From: an uncultured Alphaproteobacteria bacterium
GTDB lineage: Bacteria > Pseudomonadota > Alphaproteobacteria > RF32 > CAG-239
Direction: 5' to 3'
Assembly (NCBI GenBank): GCA_934273635.1
Contig: CAKQSV010000003.1
Span: 44,975 to 108,974, forward strand
DNA length: 64,000 bases
Part shown: positions 610 through 20,886 of the stretch, piece after piece
Numbering within the stretch: the stretch's first letter is position 1
Layout of the letters: the number at the start of each line of letters is the position of its first letter
Position numbers and translations under genes: made by a program
The notes under the pieces: model-generated
Database searches by the model: none
Seen by the model: the letters and a program-made list of their open reading frames with translations, nothing else
Told to the model about the DNA's origin: nothing

Positions 610-941
610 GCTTTCACATCAAAGTTACGGTTGTTCTTATGCATAAAGTCAATCACAACCTTATGTTTTTGTTCTAATGTCGACAAGTGATTATACGCAT
701 CCGCCGCATATTCCGCCGGTGTTAGATTTTGCTCGGTAAGAGCGAATTGTTGAATATTAAACTTATTATCTCCGTTCAGTGTATTGATATTGCTGCGCAA
801 ATCGTTATTCAGCGATAATATGAAATCATCGTTTGCAACCGCCGATGAGGTGGTTGCATCGGTCTTTCGCTCTTTTAAGCGGCTGACGTATTGCCTGATT
901 TGCGCGGTGACGCTGTTATTTAAGTTTATATTCTCAGACAT
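606..941 (-). CDS. hypothetical 111-aa protein, translationally coupled between the giant coiled-coil gene and dusB
   Basis: ORF with no antisense competitor of similar quality. It lies 15 nt downstream of the 1334-aa gene and overlaps the dusB start by 4 nt. Confidence 0.5.
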   Translation of the reverse strand: MSENINLNNSVTAQIRQYVSRLKERKTDATTSSAVANDDFILSLNNDLRSNINTLNGDNKFNIQQFALTEQNLTPAEYAADAYNHLSTLEQKHKVVIDFMHKNNRNFDVKA

Positions 942-955
942 CTGCTACCTGTTTA

Positions 956-3900
956 TCAGTTGAGTTTGTCCAGTGCTTTGGCAATCACATAATAAACCTT
1001 GCCGACATCTGACCCCGAGATAACCGAGAGCAAAACCCCTGCCCGCTCATTGCCTTTGGCCTTGCTGATGAGCATTTCAAAATCAGCCACATAACGGTTG
1101 ACAAGACTGCGGAAGTCAGCGTTTTCCTCATATTCCTTGCGGATAGCGCCAATCTGGTTTTTGGTCATCACTTTGGCTAAATATCTGACAAATGCCGCCG
1201 TGTCGCCGCTGTAATACTTTTTCCAAATCTCTTCTTCTGTGGTTGGATTGAAAATGCGGTTAATATCAATCGCCACGGTTTCCATCCGTTCAAACAACGT
1301 CGCCGCGTCTTTCAAAAAGCTGTCAACCTGAACCTCTTGATATTTAGTCTCGAGTTTGCGCAGATTCTCTGCCGCTTTCAACGAGGTGGAGTCAATAATC
1401 TCGGACTGACGTTCAAAGACTTTGGTGAACTCATCAGATTGTTCCAACCACATTTTACCCTTAACGCTGAGGTCTTCCGAGCCGTTTTTGAGAGCGTCCA
1501 TAGCCGCGTTTACTTTAAGCAACGTGTCTTCCGTAATACCGCTCAGCACGCCGGACTGTTTCAAAAACACCTCGCCTGACGAGCGGATGTCGTTGGAAAT
1601 TCGCTCGGCATTGGCGGCGATTTCATTAATGCTGGCACGCATTTTATCGCCGGCGTTGCTCATGTGTTTGGCGGTCAGTTGAGTGGAATCCTCCAACTGC
1701 AGGCTCAATTCTTTGAGTTGCGCGCCAATACCATTGATTTGTTCAAAGGCTTTGCCGGCGCGTTTACTCAACTGATTTGACGCCTCGTTCAAAACCACGT
1801 TAAAGCTGTCAACCAAGTGTTTGGTGTCTTCAGAAATTTTTATCATCTTGTCGTTTTGTTGCGAAATCAGGTTATTAACCTCAACCACGCCACTGCTCGC
1901 CTCTGCCGTAACAGTGTTGAAACCGGCGACATAGTCTTGGTATTTGGTGATAACGCCGTCAACACGTTTGTTGGTGTTGTTGACGGTCTCGGTCAACGTG
2001 TCGCTCAGGTTGTTTAACGACATCCCCGCAGACTCAATACTGCTGACAGATTGTTTTGAAACCTTACTAACATCTTCACCCGCTTTGATAATTCTATCAC
2101 TCAACGCATTGATTTCAAAAGCTAATTTACTACTTGTATCAAACACGCTTGCGGTGTTGTTTTGGAACAGGGCTTCAATCTCTTTCATCTTGGTACTGAC
2201 ATCGTTTGCCGCATCGGACAAATATTTGTATTGCTGTGCCAAAGACGCCTCACCCAAACGGGTTTGGGTCGATACCAGATTCACAACATCGGCAATGCTG
2301 TCTTTTTGCTTGTTAAAACTACCGCTGATTTGCTCGGACTGGCTCTTGATTTTGGTCAGACTGCCATCCAAACTCTTGACCTGACTTTCTAAAATTTGTG
2401 CAATATTGCGGCTATCAGTCAATAGTGAGCGTCCGCTCTCTTTCAGGCGGTTGCAGCTGGTATTAATCTCAGATCCGGCGACGGAACTCTCCTCTTTAAT
2501 CGCCTGAAGATAGTTGTTAAAACCGCCCAAAGTTTTGTTCAAATCTTCGCTGACGGCCTTGATTTTGCCGCTGATAACGCTAATAGAATCTTCAACCTCT
2601 TGGTTTTGTTGGTTGAGAATATTATTAACATTGAGCAACTTATCAATCGTTTGGTTGGAGGTGTTGTTCAACAGCAAGGCTTTTTTAGAGAACTCTTCTT
2701 CAAAACCGGCCATACGATTAAAGACGCGGTCGCTGCTTTGCTCCAACATCATAATCTGATTTTTGAGAGTATCGTTAATGGAGACGGTATTCTCGGAAAG
2801 TTTGTCGCAAATATTGAAAAATTCGGACTGCTGATTTTTGAACAACAGATTGATAGTGGCGGCTTTTTCATCTAAGGCCTGAACCATATCTGCCACATAA
2901 TGCGCGGTGTTTTCCGCCGTGCTGTTCAAAATTGACGACTGCTGATTGAACAGTTCAAGCAGTTTGTTGTGCTTGTTGGTGGTGTTGTCGGTCGCGCCGT
3001 TGACAGCTTTGATTTGCGCCTCTAAAATTGAGGCCACGTTCTCGGCACGGGAGACAATATTTTGCACCAAATTTTCAAGGTTCGACTGGTTGTCACGCAG
3101 GTTTGATGAAAAATCGCCGACTTTTGCCAAAGCCTGATCCGACAACAAAGCAAACTGCTGCGTTTGGGTTTGCAACTCTTGAGTGGCGCCGTTGGCTCGA
3201 CCAATCACCTCTGACGACTGTTTCAAACTGTTTTCAAGTTCGTTGTTCATACGTTTAACGGCGTTGACGGTTTCGTCATCAATTGAGTTTGCCATACGCA
3301 ACAGGTCGTCCATTTGTTGTTTAAGGGTGTCTTTGCTGTTTTCAATTTTGACCAAAGCCGCAGACAACAGTTTGTTTTGCTGTTCCATAACCGAGCTGTT
3401 TAACTGCCCTTGGGTTGACAAGGTGTCGGAAATTTTCTGCAGGCTGTCAGACTGGCGGGTAATAAGGGTTTCGACCTCTTTCACACTGTCAATCAGCACA
3501 TTGGCCGAGGATTTGGCATTACCGACGTTGGTTTGCATTTTTTCGCACACGCGATCAATAACCCCCTCAACATTAAGCGCCGTTGCCGACATGGAGTTGC
3601 TTCTGTCCTCAAGCTCAAGGCACAAAGCCTTGGTGGTTTCAACCGAACTGAGCTGTTCCTGATGAAGCGACTTTATCTTATCATCAAAGGTTTCCGAAGC
3701 ACTCACAACATTGGTGACCGCGGCTTGAGAAATGTCTTGCAAACGTTGCAATTTATCGGCCATGTGCGCGTCAACATCGTTCATACTCTGGTTAATTGTG
3801 TCGGCCAAACCGGTTAAATCCTGCACTTTCATATCAATACAGTCCGAAATGGTTTTGGTACGCGAAATAATGGCGTCAACCTCTTTGTTCAGATTGCTGC

Positions 3901-4960
3901 GGAACTCTTCAAATTTACCGGACGCCAAAACCGAAGTTTTATCCAGATTTTTAAGATAATCTAAAATCTGCCCCGACTGATTGGCGAACGTTTTTTCAAC
4001 ATTAGCCGATTTTTCTTGCAGTTGCTTGTAAATATCCTGATAATTGGCAATAATTCCGGCCGAAAGTTTCTCCAGACGGGTGCTCTGAGCGTTGATAAAA
4101 CTGCTGATACTGTCAAAATCGTTATTGAGCTTGGATGAGCATTTGTTCAACAGCTCGCTGTTCATATTCACAATTTGGTTTTGTCCGCTATACATTTTGT
4201 TCAGTTCGCCCGAGGCCGACTGAATATTTTCCAACTGTTGCTTGATGGTGCCGGTCACCTGTTCCATTTCGGTTTTGACGGTGTTGGCCGTGGCGGAAAA
4301 ATCGGTAATGCGTTTTTCAATAACGTTGGCCGTGGTGTTGACTTTGTCATTGATATAATCCAAACCCTGCGACATCAGTTTCATACCGTCGTTCAACTCG
4401 TTCATGGTGGTGCCAGAATAGCCTTGCAACACCGAGACCAACTTTGAAAAGTCCGTCACATGCTGTCCTAACTCGGTTTTAATGCGGTCGGTTTCTTCAG
4501 TAGCCTGTTTGGTGGCCTGACGAAGTTCCAACACCTGCGCGCGGATGGCGTCCGTCATCGCCTTTGAGGTTTGCGCCGCGCCGTCTTCAGGATAAACCAA
4601 CTGATTCATATAAGCGTGCAATAATTTGGCCTCTTGCTTAAAACTGGCACCGCGGTCGATATAAGCAATCACCATCCAGATAATTGCCAATGGCAAAGTT
4701 ATGCCGGCCAGAAAACCGCCAAACTCATCGGGCATCATCAAAAACAGGTTAGACCAGCCGAAAAACTGGGTGATGTATATAATCACCACCAAAAACCAAA
4801 CCGAGCTGATACCGAGCATAAGTTTATAGAGCTTGCCGGCGTCCTTACGGATGCTGTCTTCGGCAGGCGTTTCAACTTGCGGTTCTTCGGTCATAAATTG
4901 CGGAATTTTAACGGCATTGACGTTCGGCTGATTTTGCTGTTCAGGCATAATATTCCCCAT
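956..4960 (-). CDS. giant (1334 aa) membrane-anchored coiled-coil protein; two N-terminal TM helices; conserved globular C-terminus
   Basis: Single 4-kb ORF. N-terminus has hydrophobic segments LMLGISSVWFLVVIIYITQFF and GGFLAGITLPLAIIWMVIAY. More than 1000 aa of low-complexity Q/N/S/L/E/K-rich heptad-like sequence follow. The C-terminal ~120 aa are non-repetitive. All overlapping plus-strand ORFs are short. Confidence 0.75.
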   Translation of the reverse strand: MGNIMPEQQNQPNVNAVKIPQFMTEEPQVETPAEDSIRKDAGKLYKLMLGISSVWFLVVIIYITQFFGWSNLFLMMPDEFGGFLAGITLPLAIIWMVIAYIDRGASFKQEAKLLHAYMNQLVYPEDGAAQTSKAMTDAIRAQVLELRQATKQATEETDRIKTELGQHVTDFSKLVSVLQGYSGTTMNELNDGMKLMSQGLDYINDKVNTTANVIEKRITDFSATANTVKTEMEQVTGTIKQQLENIQSASGELNKMYSGQNQIVNMNSELLNKCSSKLNNDFDSISSFINAQSTRLEKLSAGIIANYQDIYKQLQEKSANVEKTFANQSGQILDYLKNLDKTSVLASGKFEEFRSNLNKEVDAIISRTKTISDCIDMKVQDLTGLADTINQSMNDVDAHMADKLQRLQDISQAAVTNVVSASETFDDKIKSLHQEQLSSVETTKALCLELEDRSNSMSATALNVEGVIDRVCEKMQTNVGNAKSSANVLIDSVKEVETLITRQSDSLQKISDTLSTQGQLNSSVMEQQNKLLSAALVKIENSKDTLKQQMDDLLRMANSIDDETVNAVKRMNNELENSLKQSSEVIGRANGATQELQTQTQQFALLSDQALAKVGDFSSNLRDNQSNLENLVQNIVSRAENVASILEAQIKAVNGATDNTTNKHNKLLELFNQQSSILNSTAENTAHYVADMVQALDEKAATINLLFKNQQSEFFNICDKLSENTVSINDTLKNQIMMLEQSSDRVFNRMAGFEEEFSKKALLLNNTSNQTIDKLLNVNNILNQQNQEVEDSISVISGKIKAVSEDLNKTLGGFNNYLQAIKEESSVAGSEINTSCNRLKESGRSLLTDSRNIAQILESQVKSLDGSLTKIKSQSEQISGSFNKQKDSIADVVNLVSTQTRLGEASLAQQYKYLSDAANDVSTKMKEIEALFQNNTASVFDTSSKLAFEINALSDRIIKAGEDVSKVSKQSVSSIESAGMSLNNLSDTLTETVNNTNKRVDGVITKYQDYVAGFNTVTAEASSGVVEVNNLISQQNDKMIKISEDTKHLVDSFNVVLNEASNQLSKRAGKAFEQINGIGAQLKELSLQLEDSTQLTAKHMSNAGDKMRASINEIAANAERISNDIRSSGEVFLKQSGVLSGITEDTLLKVNAAMDALKNGSEDLSVKGKMWLEQSDEFTKVFERQSEIIDSTSLKAAENLRKLETKYQEVQVDSFLKDAATLFERMETVAIDINRIFNPTTEEEIWKKYYSGDTAAFVRYLAKVMTKNQIGAIRKEYEENADFRSLVNRYVADFEMLISKAKGNERAGVLLSVISGSDVGKVYYVIAKALDKLN

Positions 4961-5057
4961 AAAATAATTATTACACTATAAACGCCCTTACTCTACACTA
5001 ATTTTTTTTGATTTTAAAACATTAAAACACTTTGCGATTGACTTATCCACACCACCG

Positions 5058-5086
5058 ACAAAAAAGAGCCTTTTTCAAGGCTCTTT
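5058..5086 (-). terminator. rho-independent terminator downstream of rpoD
   Basis: AGAGCC/GGCTCT hairpin followed by a T-run on the minus strand. Confidence 0.5.
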
Positions 5087-5092
5087 GGATTT

Positions 5093-7156
5093 TTATTGAT
5101 CAAGGAACGAACGCAACTTGCGCGAACGGCTCGGATGTTTGAGCTTGCGCAAAGCCTTGGCCTCAATCTGACGAATACGCTCACGTGTTACGTTAAACTG
5201 CTGTCCGACTTCTTCCAACGTGTGGTCGGTGTTCATACCAATACCAAAACGCATTCTCAGCACACGCTCTTCCCTCGGCGTGAGTGAAGACAAAATGCGG
5301 GTGCAGGTTTCTTTGAGGTTGGAGTGAATTGCGGAATCCAAAGGCTGCAAAGCATTGTCATCGGCAATAAAATCGCCCAAAGAAGAATCTTCTTCATCAC
5401 CCACCGGCGCCTCTAATGAAACCGGCTCTTTGGCTATCTTCATAACCTTGCGGACTTTCTCAAGCGGCATAGACAAACGTTTTGCCAACTCCTCGGGCAC
5501 CGGCTCACGCCCCATTTCAGCCAACATCTGACGAGAGGTTCTCACCAGTTTATTGATAGTCTCAATCATGTGTACCGGAATACGGATAGTGCGCGCCTGA
5601 TCGGCAATGGAACGGGTAATTGCCTGACGTATCCACCATGTGGCATAGGTTGAAAACTTGTAGCCGCGGCGATATTCAAACTTGTCTACCGCTTTCATTA
5701 AGCCGATATTGCCTTCCTGAATCAAATCAAGAAACTGCAAGCCGCGGTTGGTGTATTTTTTGGCGATAGAGATAACCAAGCGCAAGTTGGCTTCAATCAT
5801 CTCTTTTTTAGCTCTATCGGCCTCGCGTTCACCTTTCTTAATGGTATCAACCATACGGCGATATTCATTAATCGGCAGACCGCACTCCTGCGCCATTTGC
5901 GCAATGGCGTCACGCAGTTCAACAACCTCGGCGCCATATTTTTCAACAAAGGCTTTCCAGTGTTTGTCGTTTTTGGACGCAACTTTTTTGAGCCAATCAG
6001 GGTCTAATTCGGCTTTTTGATAAGCCTCAAGAAAATCTTCACGTTTTACTTTGCAAGACAAGGCATAACGCAATAATTTTCCTTCCAACCCCATCAGGCG
6101 TTTATTAAGGTCGTTCAGCTGTTCGACCAGTTGTTCGATACGAACGGCATTGAGGTGAATTGAGCTCATCAACTCAACCAACTCTTTTTTAACCTGAAGA
6201 TATTTCTTTTCAGTCGCGGCAGGAATATTTTTGCCGGAGATAACAGCGTCAACACGCTGTTTTTGAACCTTGCTCAAGTCATCATAGTAACTTGAAATTT
6301 TGGTCAAAATCTCGAGTACCGGCTCGCGCAAAGCCTCTTCCATTGACGAAACCGAGGCTGAAGAGTGACCGCTTCCGCTTTCATCATCATCGTCATCATC
6401 AGAGCCGTCCTCGCCTTCTTCGGAGACATCGTCATCATCTTCGTCTTCTTCATCATCGACGGTATCTTCAAGTTCGATATCGTCTTCTAAATCGTCATCA
6501 ATATCATCTAAATTGTCTTTTTTGGCGATTTCATCAGCGACGTGATCCAAATCTTCTACGGTTTCTTCTTCATAAACCATGGCCTCGGCGTCATCACCGT
6601 ACATCATTTCCAAATCAATAATGTCACGCAGCTGCATTTTGCCTTCAAGCAAATCATCACGCCAACCGGCAATAGCTTTAATGGTCATCGGGCTGGCACA
6701 CAAGCCGTCAATCATAACGGTTTTACCTGCCTCAATACGTTTGGCAATGGCAATTTCACCCTCGCGGGACAACAGCTCAACCGTGCCCATTTCTTTCAGA
6801 TACATACGGACAGGGTCATCGGAGCGACCGAGCTCTTTTTCATCAAAATTGCCGGAGGCATCGTCATCGTCATCATCGTCTTCTTCAATATCGTTGTCCA
6901 AATCACGATCGGGCGCGTCGGCATCGGTCTCGGATGTAATGCTGATACCCAAATCCGAAATCTCGGCCATAATATCTTCAATCTGCTCGGAAGTCTCACG
7001 CTCGGACGGAAGAGCCTTGTTGAGTTCTTCAACAGTGATAAAGCCCCTAACCTTGCCTTTTTCTATGAGTTTTTTAACGGCATTACCCAATGAGTCTATC
7101 AGTGGCGCATCCACACTGCCGCCTTCATAAAAGTCCTGATTATCCATATCTGACAT
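5093..7156 (-). CDS. rpoD: RNA polymerase sigma-70 factor RpoD with long acidic insert
   Basis: 687 aa. Conserved regions 2-4 are present ([24 protein letters not shown], ...[14 protein letters not shown]...). Poly-D/E non-conserved region near the N-terminus. Confidence 0.95.
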
Positions 7157-13659: not shown

Positions 13660-15168
13660 CTAAAAATCCAGTGGGGATCCGTATAACCTGAAAGACAACA
13701 TGGGGTGGTAGCGTAAATCGCCAGTACCACTGGCATATATTGAACCTGTCCCATCTCCTGCAAACGCAAGAACTGTAAAGCCTTGAGAATAATACTCTGT
13801 TGAAGTACGAAAATATCCGCTTTTAAACCTGTCTCCTTGTGTACTACGGGTTAGGTTGTATAATACTTGCCGATAATCATAAATTTGTTTAATCTCGCCG
13901 CCAGCATAAATATACCACTCACCTTTTTTGCACACTTCCGAACAACCGGAAACCTCAAAATCAAGCATGCTCTTAAACACCGGATATTGATAGTAATAGC
14001 TTGGCTCTAATGTTTTGTTTTTTTCGCGGGCATACGCCACCAAAAAATTGGTATTATATTTGCCATCTATATCTTGAATCATTGCACTACCCGGAAGATC
14101 AGGCAAAGGTGAGCTTTCCGAGCTATGAGTGCCGGCTTTTTCTTCTCCTGACACACTAGATAAATTAATAATTCGCACTTTATCGGAAGACGATGTCGGC
14201 AGGTGTGTGATAATTCCCACCTTAACGCCACCAATAACTGCATCGTCCCCTACTTGGCACTTGGCTGTTGTCTGTTTGCAACTCCACTCATTAAAGCTAA
14301 ACGTTCCCAAACTCTCCGGCAAGTTCTCGGTTCTGACCGTTTTTTTACAACTGCTAAAGTGACATTTCTTGGTGCAGGCTGAATTTATCAGTTGATAATC
14401 ATTGGTTTTGCCACAAACCTCATCCCCGACCGGCGTGCCATCCGCCTTGTTTTCCGCATAGCGATAATAGGTGTTGCCGCCAACCAAACATTGCAAAGTG
14501 CCGCCGCGGTTTTCATATATGTTGGGATTGCTGAGATAAGGATAATCCCATGGGTCACAGGCGCTAAGCTCACAAGCGCCATTATGCCAATTCCACCCAT
14601 CATGACACTCTTTATAACCAAATACCTCGCCTTGGCTGTCTATACAATTTAGAACCGTTCCGGCAAAGTTTCCGGGGTGTTTGGTATATGGATACTTGTT
14701 GGCACGATCACACCCTTTGTCGCAAATGTCATTTTGATAGGTACTGGTGTTTTTGCACTGCTTAATCTTATAATACCAAACCGGTTTTAACGTATCTCCC
14801 TCTTGAGTATACCCCGCCAAGCAACCAAGCACACCGCCGGAATCTTTTTGTTGGGGCGTGAAACCGCCACCGAGGTGATCTATAACCGTTTTGCCGTCTG
14901 ATGTGGTTTGAGATAAATCACTTTCACTTAAGGGATAACCGCGGCAACTCTCGACCATACACAGCACTTTTTTGGAGCCGCTGTTCGCAAACGGACACAC
15001 AACTGGCACCACGCCTTTGGCAATACATTTGTCATAATCAACCGTATAACCCAAACTCTCGCAACTGGTGTTGCTCGGGGTCGAGGATGGCGTCAGCGCA
15101 TGAGAGAGCGACGAACTCAACAGCAACATTGCACTACCGGATGCTATAATCTTATTTGCTTTTGTCAT
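13660..15168 (-). CDS. secreted Cys-rich protein B (502 aa), paralog of the upstream 904-aa protein
   Basis: AGGAGG RBS. Signal peptide. 22 Cys. Shares the C-x-SLGY N-terminal motif and the CD(R/K)xx(F/Y)PY...PG..AGT(L/V)..C...GYK module with the 904-aa protein. Confidence 0.7.
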   Translation of the reverse strand: MTKANKIIASGSAMLLLSSSLSHALTPSSTPSNTSCESLGYTVDYDKCIAKGVVPVVCPFANSGSKKVLCMVESCRGYPLSESDLSQTTSDGKTVIDHLGGGFTPQQKDSGGVLGCLAGYTQEGDTLKPVWYYKIKQCKNTSTYQNDICDKGCDRANKYPYTKHPGNFAGTVLNCIDSQGEVFGYKECHDGWNWHNGACELSACDPWDYPYLSNPNIYENRGGTLQCLVGGNTYYRYAENKADGTPVGDEVCGKTNDYQLINSACTKKCHFSSCKKTVRTENLPESLGTFSFNEWSCKQTTAKCQVGDDAVIGGVKVGIITHLPTSSSDKVRIINLSSVSGEEKAGTHSSESSPLPDLPGSAMIQDIDGKYNTNFLVAYAREKNKTLEPSYYYQYPVFKSMLDFEVSGCSEVCKKGEWYIYAGGEIKQIYDYRQVLYNLTRSTQGDRFKSGYFRTSTEYYSQGFTVLAFAGDGTGSIYASGTGDLRYHPMLSFRLYGSPLDF

Positions 15169-15181
15169 TATTCCGCCTCCT

Positions 15182-17896
15182 CTAATATGTAATATTCAAA
15201 ACAGGTATAACACTTACTTTAGCTGTACGGAGTAATAATCGATCAGAATCGCCAAATCTCCTTTGATACGCTCTGTTGCCATCTTCTGACAGGTCATCAA
15301 TCCAAGTCGTTGATGCGCCGGATATAGATTCAGCACAAATTACACCCAGATACTGGTATTCTCTACTTTTATCTCCTGGGGTCATTTCTCTTGGTGGCAT
15401 AAACCATTTACCTTTACCAACTTTAGAATTACTTTCCAAACCCTCAGGCGCATAGTTTGCGGCATAGGTTTTGGCCTCATCCCATGTAAGTGAGCCTTTG
15501 GCAGCACCAGCAATTAGAAGCTCTTTACCAGATTTTCCGAATACCACACCGACTTGCGTCGAACCGGAATAGAGCACATCAGTCGGCGCACATTTGCTCA
15601 AATCTGACATATAGCAATATTTGTAGCAGATACCATAACCACAACCACCATGTTTGAAACCTGTCGGACAGGTTGATATTCCGGGGAAAATATACCCATT
15701 TCTACAAGTGTTAATTTCAATAATCATTTTATCTGTCCTGATGTGATAGAGCCCATCCGAGCCCTTGACCACACTTGCCACATGACGACATTTGTTGCAC
15801 GCGGCTTCTATGCCCTCATTGCAACCCTCGGGCACCAATGCGCAAACTGCGTCATCCCCAAGTTTTTTGCCATCCTGCGACAAACAATGCGTATATTTAT
15901 GCACACAATAACTATCCGCCGAAGTGCGCGGTTCTGATTTTGCCGAAACCGTTGCAAAACCATTATCACTTAAAAAATAATTGAGCATATAAATCCCTGG
16001 ATAATATCCATAATAAGTTGTATACCCCGTCGGTCCCTCGATCAAGCACATACCTTTGGTCACACCATAGGTTCCCAGATAGCGCCCCATGTAGCACATG
16101 GTGTAGCCATAATATGAACCGTCGGCGTCGGTGCAAGATGTTGACTTGCCATAATATCCGGCGTTAAAACCCGTATTGGCGTAATTATTTGAAATGTCAC
16201 CATTGGTGTTATAAAACGTCGCGGTGGTAAACGGCAGATAATAATCTCGACCGCCCTCGCCATTGCGCGCACAAACACAACGCCGATTGTTGTTCGGATC
16301 GACAATCCACAACTCGCCTTTACTAACATCATCGTTGCATTTGCTATAACCAAAATACGCTTTATACCCTAAAGACTCACTACTGTCCGCCTCATAACAG
16401 GTCTCTAAAGTGCCGGCATCTTCTCCCGGGTTTTGCGCATAAGGAAAACGGGTTTTATCGCAAACGTTCTCAACACACTTATGAGTTGTGTTATCCATAC
16501 GATAACCGCGATTACAACATTTTTCGGTGTCGCCTTTGTTTTGGTTGTCGTCCAAATTAACCCAACCACTACCGGTAAATTTGCCCTCGCTCCAGCCTTT
16601 GTTACAATCATCATGTTGATATTTACAACGCACACCTTGCGACAAATCGGCGCAAAACTCAACCTTGGCGCCCTTGTTTTTGAGTGTGTTAATATCCGTC
16701 GAGCCTGAGGCTAAAGCGCTCTGTTCCACGCACGCAGACGTGCCGACATCGTAACCGGTGCAATATTTGCTATCATTGCACCAGACCTTACTGCTGTCGG
16801 TCGGACAACGCACGATAATATTATTGTTGTAGCAATCGGCATCGCTCTTGGTATAGCCCTGCGCGTCACACTCGTTTAAGGCCGTATCTGAGATGCTGCC
16901 GCTGTTGGCGCCCGACAACGCATAGCCGCGACACAGGTAGCCGTTGAGCTCTTCGCTTGTGGGTTTTAAGGTTGCACCCTCCGGCTCATACAAACAATGC
17001 CAGGTCGCGCCGTATAAATATTCATCTAAGTTGGTCTCGGAGGTTTTGGTACAGCCGCTTTCACAGTTGGAATCCGTGGTGAGAATACTGCCGTTCAGTT
17101 CGCAATAATATGACGAATTTATCAGCATGGATTTACTGCAGACCGTGTCAAAGTGCGAGGCGCAGGTGCATGAGGCATATTTGGGAACACTCTTGCCACC
17201 CTCCCACACGTTGCACGCCGTGCCCATGCCGATAGTATGGGTGTTGCCGGTGCCGCACTCGACATAACTGTTGGGACAGCAACCACTATAATAAGTTTCT
17301 ATTTTTTTGGTTTTCGGCTCATAGGCGCGGCAGGTGTTGGAGACATTAAAAGAACCCTTGTTGCCGCAACTTTCCTGATAATCGCCGTTTTGATTTTGGA
17401 TGGTGCTGTACGGATAGCGGCTACGGTCGCAGGAACAGCGATATTTCAATCCGCCCTCGGCAAAATAGCAACTGTCGGATACTTGCGCCGTGGAATTGTT
17501 GTCACAGGCATCAGTACTGGTTGCCGTGTAGACTTTAGCGTTGCAGCAACCGGAGGTATAGGCACTCGCCCCTTCGCGATTGACATCCTTGGAGCAAAGA
17601 TAAGACGGTTTAAGGTCGCCGGTGCACGCCGAGACCGGAATTGCATACCCAAGCGAGGCGCATTGCGTCCGAACGTCTATCTCCCCCTTGCCAAAGTCAA
17701 GTTTGGTATCATCCGTCAAAAAACTCACACTTGCATATTTAGGATAAGGAGAAGTTGTAGGTTTTGACCTAGTTGTAAGGTTGGGTTTGATTTGATCTAC
17801 GAGGTTGGCGCCTGATGATGATATAAGCCCCGCACTGACATTAAGCGTTGTTGCACACAACAAAATAAGTATGCCAAAACAAAAGCGCATATTCAT
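15182..17896 (-). CDS. secreted Cys/Tyr/Gly-rich protein A (904 aa)
   Basis: Signal peptide MNMRFCFGILILLCATTLNVSA. About 58 Cys. Repeated CDxxR(Y/F)PY modules. The stop lies 13 nt before the start of protein B, consistent with an operon. Confidence 0.7.
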   Translation of the reverse strand: MNMRFCFGILILLCATTLNVSAGLISSSGANLVDQIKPNLTTRSKPTTSPYPKYASVSFLTDDTKLDFGKGEIDVRTQCASLGYAIPVSACTGDLKPSYLCSKDVNREGASAYTSGCCNAKVYTATSTDACDNNSTAQVSDSCYFAEGGLKYRCSCDRSRYPYSTIQNQNGDYQESCGNKGSFNVSNTCRAYEPKTKKIETYYSGCCPNSYVECGTGNTHTIGMGTACNVWEGGKSVPKYASCTCASHFDTVCSKSMLINSSYYCELNGSILTTDSNCESGCTKTSETNLDEYLYGATWHCLYEPEGATLKPTSEELNGYLCRGYALSGANSGSISDTALNECDAQGYTKSDADCYNNNIIVRCPTDSSKVWCNDSKYCTGYDVGTSACVEQSALASGSTDINTLKNKGAKVEFCADLSQGVRCKYQHDDCNKGWSEGKFTGSGWVNLDDNQNKGDTEKCCNRGYRMDNTTHKCVENVCDKTRFPYAQNPGEDAGTLETCYEADSSESLGYKAYFGYSKCNDDVSKGELWIVDPNNNRRCVCARNGEGGRDYYLPFTTATFYNTNGDISNNYANTGFNAGYYGKSTSCTDADGSYYGYTMCYMGRYLGTYGVTKGMCLIEGPTGYTTYYGYYPGIYMLNYFLSDNGFATVSAKSEPRTSADSYCVHKYTHCLSQDGKKLGDDAVCALVPEGCNEGIEAACNKCRHVASVVKGSDGLYHIRTDKMIIEINTCRNGYIFPGISTCPTGFKHGGCGYGICYKYCYMSDLSKCAPTDVLYSGSTQVGVVFGKSGKELLIAGAAKGSLTWDEAKTYAANYAPEGLESNSKVGKGKWFMPPREMTPGDKSREYQYLGVICAESISGASTTWIDDLSEDGNRAYQRRFGDSDRLLLRTAKVSVIPVLNITY

Positions 17897-18070
17897 AAGA
17901 CACCTCTTGTATAAAACTAAATCAAAACCTACGATTCTAACTTATCACAAAAAATCAAATTGCACAACAACTTTTTAACCTCATACTTTTTTCTGTCTAT
18001 TACTCTCACTCTTGGAAGTCGGCTTTTTATTCTTATATTCTTGGTGACAAATAATATTATGGAGGATAAA

Positions 18071-18313
18071 ATGTCTGAAAACAAAAGTAGAGTTTGCTGT
18101 TTTTATGATTATGCCGACAAATGTGACTGCGCCGAAGATGATCGTTGCGGTTGCAATTATCCCAACAACACAGACTGTTCATATAAATGTGTGAAGTCTG
18201 ACAAAACGCTAAAATCACCCGAACAGCCTCTTGAGATTAAACCAAACACTGTCTGCTTTTGCAGTCCGAAAGATTGTGATTGTAGCGGCAATCAGAAAAT
18301 TGCGGAAAAATAA
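18071..18313 (+). CDS. small (80 aa) cytoplasmic Cys-rich protein, CxC-repeat, metallothionein-like
   Basis: GGAGG RBS 5 nt before ATG. MSENKSRVCCFYDYADKCDCAEDDRCGCN...CFCSPKDCDCSGN. 12 Cys. The stop lies 2 nt before the trxB ATG. Confidence 0.6.
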   Translation: MSENKSRVCCFYDYADKCDCAEDDRCGCNYPNNTDCSYKCVKSDKTLKSPEQPLEIKPNTVCFCSPKDCDCSGNQKIAEK

Positions 18314-18315
18314 AT

Positions 18316-19257
18316 ATGGCTGAATATAAAACTAAAATCTTGATTATCGGCTCGGGACCGGCCGGATACTGTGCGGGAATTTATGCCGCGCGCGCCGGAC
18401 TTGAGCCGATTATTGTGACCGGACAACAAACCGGCGGGCAACTCACCATGACTTCTGAAATTGAGAATTACCCTGGGTTCGCTCAGCCGATTAGCGGCGC
18501 CGAACTGGTGGAAAATATGCGCAAACAATGCCTGGCTACCGGTTGTCTGATTGTTGACGACACGGTGACTGAAGTTGACTTCGCGCACCGACCGTTTGTT
18601 TTGAGCTCTGAGAAACACAATCAATTTTGCGGCGACAGCGTGATTATTGCTACCGGCGCGTCAGCGCGTTGGCTAAATGTTAAAGGTGAAGAAAAGTTTC
18701 GCGGTTGGGGTGTTTCGGCATGTGCCACATGTGACGGTTTTTTCTATCGCGGCAAACGGGTGGCTGTGGTCGGTGGCGGCAACACCGCGGCGGAAGAGGC
18801 TTTATATTTGGCGGGGTTGGCATCGCAGGTTTTGTTAATTCACCGTCGAGACGCTTTGCGCGCCGATAAGATTTTACAAGAACGTTTGATGAAAAATCCT
18901 CGGATTAATCTGATTTGGGACAGCGTGGTGGAAGAGGTTTCGGGCTCGGAGAATCCGCTCAGCCTTAATACCGTACGCGTGAAAAACGTAAAAGACGACT
19001 CTGAGGCGATTTTGAACGTAGACGGCTTGTTCGTGGCTATCGGACACACGCCGAACACCGCTATTTTTAAGGGGCAGTTAAAGTTGGATGAGCAAGGTTA
19101 CATCATCACCGCCGCAGGCTCTTGCAAAACCAGTGTGAGCGGGGTGTTTGCCGCCGGAGACGTGGTGGCGGGCAACCACAAACAAGCCATTATTGCCGCC
19201 GGAAACGGTTGTCAAGCGATGTTGGAAGCTGAAAAATATCTTGCAGAAATGCAATAA
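18316..19257 (+). CDS. trxB: thioredoxin reductase
   Basis: GSGPAGY FAD motif and CATC redox-active disulfide. Confidence 0.93.
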   Translation: MAEYKTKILIIGSGPAGYCAGIYAARAGLEPIIVTGQQTGGQLTMTSEIENYPGFAQPISGAELVENMRKQCLATGCLIVDDTVTEVDFAHRPFVLSSEKHNQFCGDSVIIATGASARWLNVKGEEKFRGWGVSACATCDGFFYRGKRVAVVGGGNTAAEEALYLAGLASQVLLIHRRDALRADKILQERLMKNPRINLIWDSVVEEVSGSENPLSLNTVRVKNVKDDSEAILNVDGLFVAIGHTPNTAIFKGQLKLDEQGYIITAAGSCKTSVSGVFAAGDVVAGNHKQAIIAAGNGCQAMLEAEKYLAEMQ

Positions 19258-19303
19258 TCAGGCTATACCACACCAGTAATAATTTGTTTTAAGGAGAATA
19301 CTT

Positions 19304-19501
19304 ATGGTGGAAGAAAAATGTTCTTGTGGCTGCGATTGTGATTGCGGTTGTGACTGCGAATGCTGCTGCAATACCGACAAAGAAATCGCGTTTGAATTGT
19401 GCCGCACTTTGATTGAGGGTCGCACCTATACCGCCGATGCGGTTGCCGAAGCCTACAAAAAGATTTTTGAGGCTGTTAAAAGCTGCAAGTCTGAGGACTA
19501 A
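19304..19501 (+). CDS. small (65 aa) Cys-rich protein, metallothionein-like N-terminus plus helical tail
   Basis: AAGGAG RBS. MVEEKCSCGCDCDCGCDCECCC... 12 Cys. A strong terminator follows. Confidence 0.6.
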   Translation: MVEEKCSCGCDCDCGCDCECCCNTDKEIAFELCRTLIEGRTYTADAVAEAYKKIFEAVKSCKSED

Positions 19502-19515
19502 TTTGTTATTTTCAG

Positions 19516-19548
19516 GAGACTTCCAATCAGGAAGTCTCTCTTTTTTTG
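19516..19548 (+). terminator. rho-independent terminator closing the cys-trxB-cys operon
   Basis: Perfect 9-bp stem GAGACTTCC/GGAAGTCTC, loop AATCA, then T7. Confidence 0.65.
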
Positions 19549-19576
19549 ATTTTTATTTTAACAATCGGATAAAATT

Positions 19577-20410
19577 ATGCTACATATCGGATGTCATCTT
19601 TCAGCCGCAAAGGGCTTTTTACATATGGGAAAAGAGGCGTTATCTATCGGCGCCGACACTTTTCAGTTTTTTACACGCAATCCGCGCGGCGGCAATGCCA
19701 AAGAGATTTCTCATCAAGATGTGCAAAGTTTTCTGAAACTCAGTCATGAACATAATTTTGCCCCGATTTTGGCGCACGCCCCCTACACTATCAACCCTTG
19801 TTCCGACAATCCGCAAACGCGTGAATTTGCTGAAATGGCCATGACTGACGATATGAAACGGATGGCGTTTGTGGATGGCAATCTGTATAATTTTCACCCC
19901 GGAAGTCATGTCGGGCAAGGCGTCGAGACAGCCATAACTCTGATTGCGGATCTGCTTAACCGCGTGTTGCAACCAGACCTGAACACCACAGTTTTATTAG
20001 AGACGATGTCAGGTAAAGGCAGCGAGGTCGGCTCGCGTTTTGAGGAGCTGCAAGACATTATCAGCCGCGTGGAATTGTCCGACAAGCTAGGCGTGTGTTT
20101 GGATACGTGTCATATTTATTCCGCAGGTTATGATATTGTAAACAATCTGGACGGGGTGTTGGAAGAGTTTGATAAAATTATCGGGCTGAAACGCTTGCGC
20201 GCGATTCATCTTAACGATTCAATGACGCCGTTTGCCTCCCACAAAGACCGACACGAAAAAATCGGACAAGGGACTATCGGCGCCGAAGCACTCATCCGTT
20301 TGGTCAATCACCCCAAACTCAAGCACCTGCCATTTTTGCTGGAGACGCCGAACGAACTGTCGGGTTATGCGCAAGAAATTTTGCTGTTTCGGAATAACTT
20401 TAACGGCTAA
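19577..20410 (+). CDS. nfo: endonuclease IV (AP endonuclease, Nfo family)
   Basis: 277-aa TIM-barrel AP endonuclease-like sequence (HAPY..., ...[11 protein letters not shown]..., CLDTCH). Confidence 0.8.
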
Positions 20411-20863
20411 AGCGTTGACATTGTTTCTAAATCAAGAAGTTTTTGTTTTATCTCGGTGCCGCCGCCATAGCCGCCAAGCGCGCCGCTATTGAGCACAACA
20501 CGGTGGCAGGGGATGATAATCGGTAACGGATTTTTGTGGGCGGCGCTGCCTATCGCCCTGCTGCATTGGGGATTGCCAAACATCTCCGCCACTTGTTTAT
20601 AGCTCCAGACCTTGCCGTAGGGAATCTGCCGCAGGATATTCCACACTTTTATTTGAAACTCAGTTCCGACAAGTTTGGTCGGCACCGTAAAGTTTTGACG
20701 GGTGCCGTTCATATATTCCGCAATCTCGGCTTTGGCTTGTTTGAGAACCGCTGTTTCTTTGTGTTTGCCCTCCAACGGCGTAAAGCTCACCCGCAATAAT
20801 GCCTTGTCATCGGCGCCAAGCCACAAACGACCGATACCGGTTGTCATTGTCGATATGTACATG
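20407..20863 (-). CDS. ogt: methylated-DNA-protein-cysteine methyltransferase
   Basis: PCHRVV active-site motif. N-terminus resembles Ogt. Start chosen at the ATG preceded by AGGAAG; the ORF-track TTG lies 17 nt further upstream. Confidence 0.8.
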
Positions 20864-20886
20864 AAACTCTTCCTCATCAAAAAAAA

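Follow-up and report, generated by a model that had tools for sequence, protein, structure and literature searches.

A thioredoxin reductase gene, trxB, is flanked by two small genes for cysteine-rich proteins in a 64-kb stretch of DNA from an uncultured alphaproteobacterium (contig CAKQSV010000003.1, positions 44,975 to 108,974; this whole stretch is termed the window in what follows). We call the upstream gene A and the downstream gene B. Judged from its sequence, A is a free-standing form of a ∼35-aa module with four Cys (CxC-x5-CxC) that occurs in relatives as the N-terminal extension of a 2-Cys peroxiredoxin. Because A is thus the free form of a module fused elsewhere to a peroxide-destroying enzyme, the evidence suggests that thiol-based defence against oxidative stress has an accessory branch not described before. 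Our reading of its function is tentative: A and B may be thiol-rich, probably metal–thiolate (Zn) modules of a peroxiredoxin/TrxB defence against oxidative stress, kept reduced by TrxB.

A first-pass annotation of the window, made from its letters and open reading frames (ORFs), had described the three genes as a tight operon, called both small proteins metallothionein-like and suggested a reductase-coupled system for metal or redox buffering. It knew of no described system with this organization. Neither A nor B falls into a described family, and our search of the literature for bacterial metallothioneins or Cys-rich protein pairs linked to trxB found no description of one.

A peroxiredoxin module as a separate gene

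Two related genera (loci L013/L028 and L017/L030) encode a typical 2-Cys peroxiredoxin of 286–297 aa between greA and trxB. The L013 and L017 proteins carry FVCPSE and VCPANW motifs and the AhpC-TSA and 1-cysPrx_C domains (PRK15000, 241 bits), and their catalytic domain is preceded by an acidic, Cys-rich extension of 95–106 aa. Homology to A covers the first ∼35 residues of this extension (MSDNKQNCTYGYDYENRCDCREDDNCGCSFPNN versus MSENKSRVCCFYDYADKCDCAEDDRCGCNYPNN): A and the peroxiredoxin N-terminus share 19 of 33 residues (58%), of which 15 are not Cys (tblastn E 4.5e-8). A profile built from stand-alone A proteins only retrieves the peroxiredoxin N-termini of L013 and L017, with E values of 1.3e-13 and 1.3e-10 (Z = 1e6).

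The A family comprises 94 protein clusters of 38–133 aa (profile search with 12 modules), none with a Pfam domain. Its signature is YDYxxKCDCxEDDxCGCx[FY]PNN; C18, C20, D23, G27, C28, P31 and N33 are invariant in the CxC-x5-CxC core and C26 is nearly so. A second motif type, K[DE]S[VI]CxC[ST]PxxCxC, is optional, found in 36 of 83 members including the A of the window. The smallest A proteins have exactly the four core Cys, and across the A and B families the minimal forms have exactly four Cys, arranged as CxC-x3/5-CxC. Compared with the features of a metallothionein, A gives a mixed picture: its core keeps Tyr/Phe residues and holds the only four invariant Cys, and an AlphaFold2 model from a 77-sequence alignment shows no fold, with a predicted local distance difference test score (pLDDT) of 44.

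No peroxiredoxin domain was found by tblastn anywhere in the window, where A ends at 80 aa with no catalytic domain. A could then be what is left of a decaying peroxiredoxin gene, functionless after losing the catalytic part; in the peroxiredoxin that relatives encode at this locus, the N-terminal extension is indeed all that A aligns with. This explanation is highly improbable and largely refuted by a stand-alone A in at least 16 lineages, an invariant core throughout the 94 clusters, strong purifying selection on A, and an intact ribosome-binding site with a 2-nt spacing to trxB that suggests translational coupling.

That A might act on trxB as an attenuator or as a leader peptide sensing cysteine was also considered, and rejected on the size of A (51–133 aa), its invariant non-Cys residues and its in-frame fusion to an enzyme in two lineages.

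Both small genes appear from their sequences to be translated and constrained. Their Cys content of 15–18% is far above chance, and strong ribosome-binding sites precede both. Selection was gauged by comparing the window with L023, a sister species at 91% identity in TrxB. Residues 1–33 of A differ by 11 synonymous and 3 non-synonymous changes, and the ratio of non-synonymous to synonymous rates (dN/dS) is 0.04 for B, 0.08 for trxB and 0.05 for the neighbouring nfo; it is this predominance of synonymous change that argues for genuine genes. Lack of conservation in relatives, which the first-pass annotation had named as evidence against its small ORFs, is not observed; both belong to conserved families, under purifying selection in the comparison with L023.

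Exact-sequence matches of the locus come from human gut metagenome contigs of Hadza and other cohorts. All named homologues of A and B are ‘Alphaproteobacteria bacterium’ metagenome-assembled genomes (MAGs). Scanning GTDB species genomes with the B alignment gave 15 species, all of them gut or rumen Alphaproteobacteria MAGs, from roe deer, water deer, chicken (‘Candidatus Scatocola’), mouse and human; some of the B-carrying MAGs are labelled Rhodospirillales or ‘Azospirillum sp.’.

The second small protein

B belongs to a separate family of 53 homologous clusters; treating A and B as a single family was rejected, as the profile of A matches no B protein. B proteins combine a hypervariable N-terminal segment (22–55 residues, 4–18 Cys, 0–7 His) with a nearly invariant C-terminal stretch of 40 residues, DKEIAFELCRTLIEGRTYTAEGVAEAFKKIFEAVKSCK. 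AlphaFold2 predicts the latter with modest confidence as a two-helix hairpin (H23–39 and H44–60; overall pLDDT 57), and residues 1–22 as disordered (pLDDT <50). Cys counts in the tail show no preference for even numbers (28 even versus 22 odd), and one subclade carries an Hpn-like segment, CCCHEEEHNHHCHC. Among close relatives B measures 63, 65, 69 or 72 aa, differing by whole CxC units, which suggests that its length changes by slippage in the 12-bp repeat that encodes them.

The hairpin is more conserved than the reductase beside it: identity to the window is 98% for the hairpin versus 68% for TrxB in L026, 85% versus 64% in L020, and 68–74% versus 60% in L038–40. Since the hairpin outstrips TrxB in this way, the comparison suggests that it is a constrained interaction surface. 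A search of 1.84 billion representative proteins with the hairpin profile gave only 4–5 true relatives, so B appears to be a clade-restricted invention. It is confined to one subclade, in which it always comes after trxB.

The same representative library holds a 130-aa protein, P0148, in which a CD1247 N-terminal domain (NF045650, E 1.5e-23) is followed by an acidic DCDCGCC segment and a B hairpin nearly identical to the Scatocola type. The CD1247 N-terminal domain is typical of Clostridia. P0148 may be a genuine recombinant; otherwise it arose by misassembly at the (TGY-GAY)n repeat.

One subclade (L020, L032–L035 and L037) has no A gene and has the longest B tails, of 49–55 aa with 16–18 Cys and 6–7 His (B genes at about 4815–5276). 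The B of L037 is 111 aa overall, and its tail is duplicated internally. In this subclade an expanded B may make up for the lost A.

Homology searches place neither protein in a known family. The A and B of the window have no match in Pfam or NCBIfam, and scanning 77 A and 30 B homologues against the same libraries gave nothing usable. The Pfam metallothionein profiles (Metallothio_*) match neither window protein at E ≤ 1 and none of the 30 B members; one of the 77 A members matches Metallothio_Euk, at E 0.035. A has no match in PDB. The B hairpin (window 19391–19486, residues 30–61) has one marginal match there, at E 9e-4, to a dihydroneopterin aldolase (5f3m/8su7, FELCRKVVEDRTYK...AENIA...YESISRC). 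This resemblance to FolB is probably due to chance, because the same profile finds no FolB-like protein among the 1.84 billion representatives. No thioredoxin fold or CxxC motif was found in either protein by Pfam, NCBIfam or AlphaFold2, which gives no fold for A and a disordered tail plus hairpin for B. An Rfam scan of 17500–19800 gave sub-threshold noise only.

A role for A and B as precursors of ribosomally synthesized and post-translationally modified peptides was rejected as well: there are no maturation, export or peptidase genes nearby, the neighbours being greA, trxB, nfo and ogt in the window and housekeeping genes elsewhere.

Linkage to trxB across lineages

Gene order was compared in 22 distinct lineages including the window, with TrxB 60–91% identical to that of the window. 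The first-pass annotation had proposed a search for co-occurrence of the small proteins with trxB elsewhere, and such co-occurrence is common. The A core is present in 18 of the 22 lineages and adjoins trxB in 16 of these 18, two of the 16 carrying it as the peroxiredoxin fusion. B directly follows trxB in 16 of 20 trxB loci, a count to be read knowing that loci retrieved via B are biased towards having B; in L017 a gene for an outer-membrane protein, on the other strand, is inserted between the two. All three genes occur together in 12 lineages. The linkage of A and B to trxB persists across genera whose TrxB is only 60–69% identical, and the A–trxB and trxB–B pairs stay while the outer neighbours (nfo-ogt, DUF1796, radC, flagellin, ABC transporter) vary.

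Tight co-transcription, as first annotated, would fit the window, where a sequence scan found no terminator-like site between A, trxB and B; some relatives do not conform. The gap between A and trxB is −1 to +5 nt in the window group. In L038–40 and the peroxiredoxin-fusion lineages it is a 115–130-nt spacer containing a terminator-like hairpin and a separate promoter-like site before trxB, TTGCCA-17-TATTTT. The promoter-like TTGGAA-16-TATATT of the window recurs 5′ of the A-peroxiredoxin gene in L013 and 5′ of A in L017 and L036, and a terminator-like hairpin lies 3′ of B in nearly all relatives.

In one lineage (L048, 4001–5106, and L049) trxB is inverted and converges on A with a 4-nt overlap; the two genes are still neighbours there, without co-transcription.

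Wherever no insertion intervenes, greA lies directly 5′ of A, at 75–85 nt upstream in other genera. The greA stop codon is followed in L013 (2952–3030), L017, L036 and L038 (3647–3703) by TTGGAA-16-TATATT, a stem-loop with a T run and the ribosome-binding site of A. The hairpin could be an attenuator in the A leader if the site is the A promoter, and otherwise the greA terminator. At 18012–18070 of the window the promoter-like site is kept and the hairpin is largely lost.

The constant position of A directly 3′ of greA, and a B hairpin that is nearly invariant and exceeds TrxB in conservation, would suit a redox-sensing regulator modelled on RsrA, Hsp33 and DksA. A and B would then be Zn–thiolate switches, with the B hairpin or A core binding RNA polymerase, a sigma factor or GreA; oxidation would free the partner and TrxB would reset the switch. 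Encoding them with trxB would give a feedback loop like that of sigR-rsrA/trxBA (PMC3961337), and Hsp33-type Zn(Cys)4 sites with a CxC motif react very fast with hypochlorous acid (PMC6021785). We find a regulatory role very doubtful. Neither small protein has an HxxxCxxC anti-sigma motif, an adjacent sigma factor or DNA-binding gene, or detectable homology to RsrA, Hsp33 or DksA (Pfam, NCBIfam, PDB); for B, whose neighbours are trxB and nfo, an Hsp33 domain was also sought and is absent. That A is fused to an enzyme in some relatives, namely peroxiredoxin, speaks for a part in catalysis or protection and not in the control of transcription.

Another alternative is that A and B simply store or detoxify metal in the manner of metallothioneins or Hpn, the place beside trxB being an inherited gene order that involves no functional coupling. 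Both proteins show CxC repeats, His-rich variants, length variation driven by repeats and predicted disorder, the clade is narrow enough for synteny to be possibly just inherited, and in several lineages a promoter-like site precedes trxB itself. We nevertheless regard this alternative as quite unlikely. The trxB–B pair outlasts every change of outer neighbours, A stays beside trxB even when trxB is inverted (L048), the peroxiredoxin fusion ties A to thiol-redox enzymology, and the weak hit of a single A member is the only match to a metallothionein family. The metallothionein-like label of the first-pass annotation fits only one of the two proteins. It suits B, with its CxC run of 4–18 Cys, up to 7 His and predicted disorder; A is no generic metallothionein, having a single conserved four-Cys motif with invariant D, G, P and N and a homologue in a peroxiredoxin extension.

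Proposed function

The proposal made at the outset treats promoter, A, trxB, B and terminator as a cassette, a putative thiol-redox unit of uncultured gut and rumen Alphaproteobacteria. That A and B are metal–thiolate modules is suggested by their minimal CxC-x3/5-CxC units, by their disorder when modelled with no ligand, and by the His-rich, length-variable tail of B. The two proteins would be unfolded alone and gain a fold when their CxC thiolates bind soft metal ions, most likely Zn. Under stress from peroxide or hypochlorite these thiolates would be oxidized, consuming the oxidant, releasing the metal, or both; in the fused form this oxidation would take place in the immediate vicinity of the peroxidase. 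TrxB, directly or via thioredoxin, would then restore the thiols with electrons from NADPH. The B hairpin would be a likely surface for docking a partner, for which TrxB is the obvious candidate. Of the reductase-coupled metal or redox buffering first suggested for this locus, a reductase-linked, thiol-rich system remains plausible; the generic metallothionein gives way, for A, to a four-Cys module derived from or associated with peroxiredoxin.

Several observations weigh against the proposal. The conserved non-Cys residues of the A core (DD, G, PNN, YDY) are unusual for metallothioneins and would be just as much at home in a peptide for docking or catalysis. In bacteria, low-molecular-weight thioredoxin reductase (TrxR) normally reduces thioredoxin only, and the 64-kb window holds neither a thioredoxin nor a separate peroxiredoxin. 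The tie of A to its upstream neighbour greA is no looser than that to trxB, and in L041 and L045 greA-A is followed by folate genes with no trxB beside A. All six lineages retrieved via A homologues lack B. Finally, all lineages belong to one clade, and inherited synteny contributes to the gene order.

The main alternative is a disulfide electron relay. Here A and/or B would be mini carriers with no thioredoxin fold, passing electrons from TrxB to the 2-Cys peroxiredoxin by dithiol/disulfide cycling of CxC (CGC), as thioredoxin, the N-terminal domain of AhpF or Clostridium pasteurianum Cp9 do; in the fused lineages the carrier would be tethered to its peroxidase. In favour of the relay, a 2-Cys peroxiredoxin encoded beside trxB carries the A module at its N-terminus, and the geometry of the core is fixed, with CGC invariant. 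The active site of protein disulfide isomerase is known to be mimicked by CGC. The absence of thioredoxin from the window is also in its favour, and the L013 order of peroxiredoxin, trxB and a small ∼9-kDa protein mirrors Cp20/Cp34/Cp9 (PMC3720550, citing Reynolds et al. 2002). A relay is nevertheless rather unlikely, though a serious contender: A and B have neither a thioredoxin fold nor CxxC, the Cys number of B is highly variable and often odd, a poor fit to a defined relay, the window species retains A with no peroxiredoxin nearby, and we found no precedent for such a carrier. The stronger claim, that A and B form a new class of redox carriers lacking the thioredoxin fold, which take electrons directly from a low-molecular-weight TrxR to a 2-Cys peroxiredoxin and so replace or bypass thioredoxin in these reduced gut Alphaproteobacteria, we judge unlikely.

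Few antioxidant enzymes have been studied as closely as thioredoxin reductase and peroxiredoxin, yet two unannotated families of ∼94 and ∼53 clusters accompany them clade-wide. The A-peroxiredoxin fusion provides a concrete, testable hypothesis for what would otherwise be orphan small proteins. Should A and B prove to be metal–thiolate buffers recycled by TrxB, or CxC carriers, they would be a new component of bacterial thiol-redox defence; should they be merely metallothionein-like and kept by trxB through inherited order, the gain would be a modest one in annotation.

Features of the locus and neighbouring genes

All coordinates are positions in the 64-kb window. The three genes lie on the + strand in the order A, trxB, B, framed by a single promoter-like site and a single terminator (Table 1). 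The two small genes, their Cys counts, the spacings to trxB (2 nt from the A stop codon, 18311–18313, to the trxB ATG and 46 nt from the end of trxB to the B ATG), the AAGGAG before B and the terminator directly after it are all as the first-pass annotation had them. An alternative A start at ATG 18059, used by some gene callers, would give 84 aa. TrxB is an ordinary NADPH thioredoxin reductase, as also annotated before: it scores 398.1 bits against TIGR01292 (cut-off 343.45; residues 7–309 covered) and E 2.5e-53 against Pyr_redox_2, and its translation has the redox-active CATC (SACATCDG) and the NADPH-binding HRRxxxR (IHRRDALRA).

Table 1. Features of the A-trxB-B locus
Feature	Coordinates	Strand	Position or evidence
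Promoter-like site TTGGAA-16 nt-TATATT	18012..18039	+	5′ of A; consensus scan
Ribosome-binding site GGAGGA of A	18061..18066	+	4 nt before ATG 18071; read from sequence
Gene A, 80 aa, 12 Cys; stand-alone copy of peroxiredoxin N-terminal module	18071..18313	+	ORF list, family of 94 clusters, purifying selection, profile match
A core motif, residues 12–33, YDYADKCDCAEDDRCGCNYPNN	18104..18169	+	Alignments; tblastn 58% identity to peroxiredoxin N-terminus
Optional second A motif, residues 58–71, PNTVCFCSPKDCDC	18242..18283	+	In 36/83 family members; no change between window and L023
trxB, canonical low-molecular-weight NADPH thioredoxin-disulfide reductase	18316..19257	+	TIGR01292, Pyr_redox_2, CATC site
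Ribosome-binding site AAGGAG of B	19291..19296	+	Read from sequence
Gene B, 65 aa, 12 Cys; residues 1–22 CxC-repeat tail, 23–61 conserved helical hairpin (predicted)	19304..19501	+	Family of 53 clusters, alignment, AlphaFold2, dN/dS 0.04
Imperfect 12-bp × 3 tandem repeat coding CxC run of B	19324..19359	+	Tandem Repeats Finder
Intrinsic terminator ending unit	19515..19548	+	10-bp stem at 19515–19539, 5-nt loop, T run

On the − strand at 13660–17896, divergent from A, are genes for two large secreted Cys-rich proteins of 904 and 502 aa, with 58 and 22 Cys; neither has a Pfam match. The 174-bp gap between A and the 904-aa gene (17897–18070) exists as first annotated, but its description as a shared control region does not hold beyond this lineage: only the window species and its sister have the two genes separating greA from A, and in other genera, which lack them, greA is directly upstream. 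A second genome of the window's own species, L006, has an allele pair only 24–35% identical to that of the window in a flank of 98% DNA identity, and this L006-type pair (773–4593) is 72–78% identical to the pair of the sister species (L023, 4010–7829). The pair has the look of a surface or secreted cassette that varies between strains and is exchanged through recombination. Since its genes are confined to these two species and swapped as alleles within one of them, the 174-bp region is a by-product of a lineage-specific insertion and does not count as evidence of co-regulation. Functional coupling of A-trxB-B to the secreted genes is ruled out by their absence from other genera and by the allele swap.

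Just 3′ of B, at 19577–20880, are nfo (endonuclease IV) and, on the opposite strand, ogt (methylated-DNA-protein-cysteine methyltransferase). These DNA-damage repair genes are found beside the redox cassette in the window group only; other genera differ.

Comparison with known systems

The closest parallels in organization are AhpF/AhpC and, in Clostridium pasteurianum, Cp34 (TrxR-like), Cp9 (glutaredoxin-like, 9 kDa) and Cp20 (peroxiredoxin). These systems share with the present locus a flavoprotein of the TrxR family beside a 2-Cys peroxiredoxin (here in L013 and L017) together with a small Cys protein of ∼7–10 kDa, and also a Cys-containing module fused to one enzyme of the pair. They differ in that A and B lack a thioredoxin or glutaredoxin fold and CxxC. 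Moreover, the fused module here is on the peroxidase and not on the reductase, and the window locus has no peroxiredoxin.

The 29-kDa ‘cysteine-rich’ peroxiredoxin of Entamoeba histolytica (EhPrx) has an extension built of KECC-type repeats; to our knowledge this extension has no free-standing form and no trxB-linked operon. Comparing the extensions by description only, EhPrx resembles the A-peroxiredoxin in being a typical 2-Cys enzyme that carries a Cys-rich N-terminal extension, which is reported as alpha-helix, and in coming from a gut anaerobe; its organism relies on thioredoxin and thioredoxin reductase (PMC13532219). If A and B prove to be TrxB-recycled buffers or CxC carriers, they might illuminate this unexplained extension.

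Bacterial metallothioneins (SmtA/BmtA, MymT) and Helicobacter Hpn are likewise small cytoplasmic proteins with 15–30% Cys, CxC motifs, His-rich variants and no fold in the absence of metal. The CxC-x5-CxC spacing of the A core is also found at the start of mammalian metallothionein. What sets A and B apart is the want of a profile match, the invariant non-Cys residues beside the four conserved Cys of the A core, the conserved helical domain predicted for B, and a consistent linkage to trxB, of which our literature search found no metallothionein example.

Four-Cys sites are also the mark of Hsp33 (CxC...CxxC), RsrA and the DksA Zn finger. Oxidation strips these sites of their Zn and the thioredoxin system restores them, and RsrA, which controls trxBA, is genetically tied to trxB expression, a further likeness to A and B. 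The difference is that A and B show no sequence similarity to these proteins and no HxxxCxxC, and no chaperone, sigma-factor or RNA-polymerase-binding domain was identified in them. A and B thus resemble the peroxiredoxin-reducing operons, EhPrx, metallothioneins and Hpn, and the Zn–thiolate switches in kind, and by profile matching are members of none of them.

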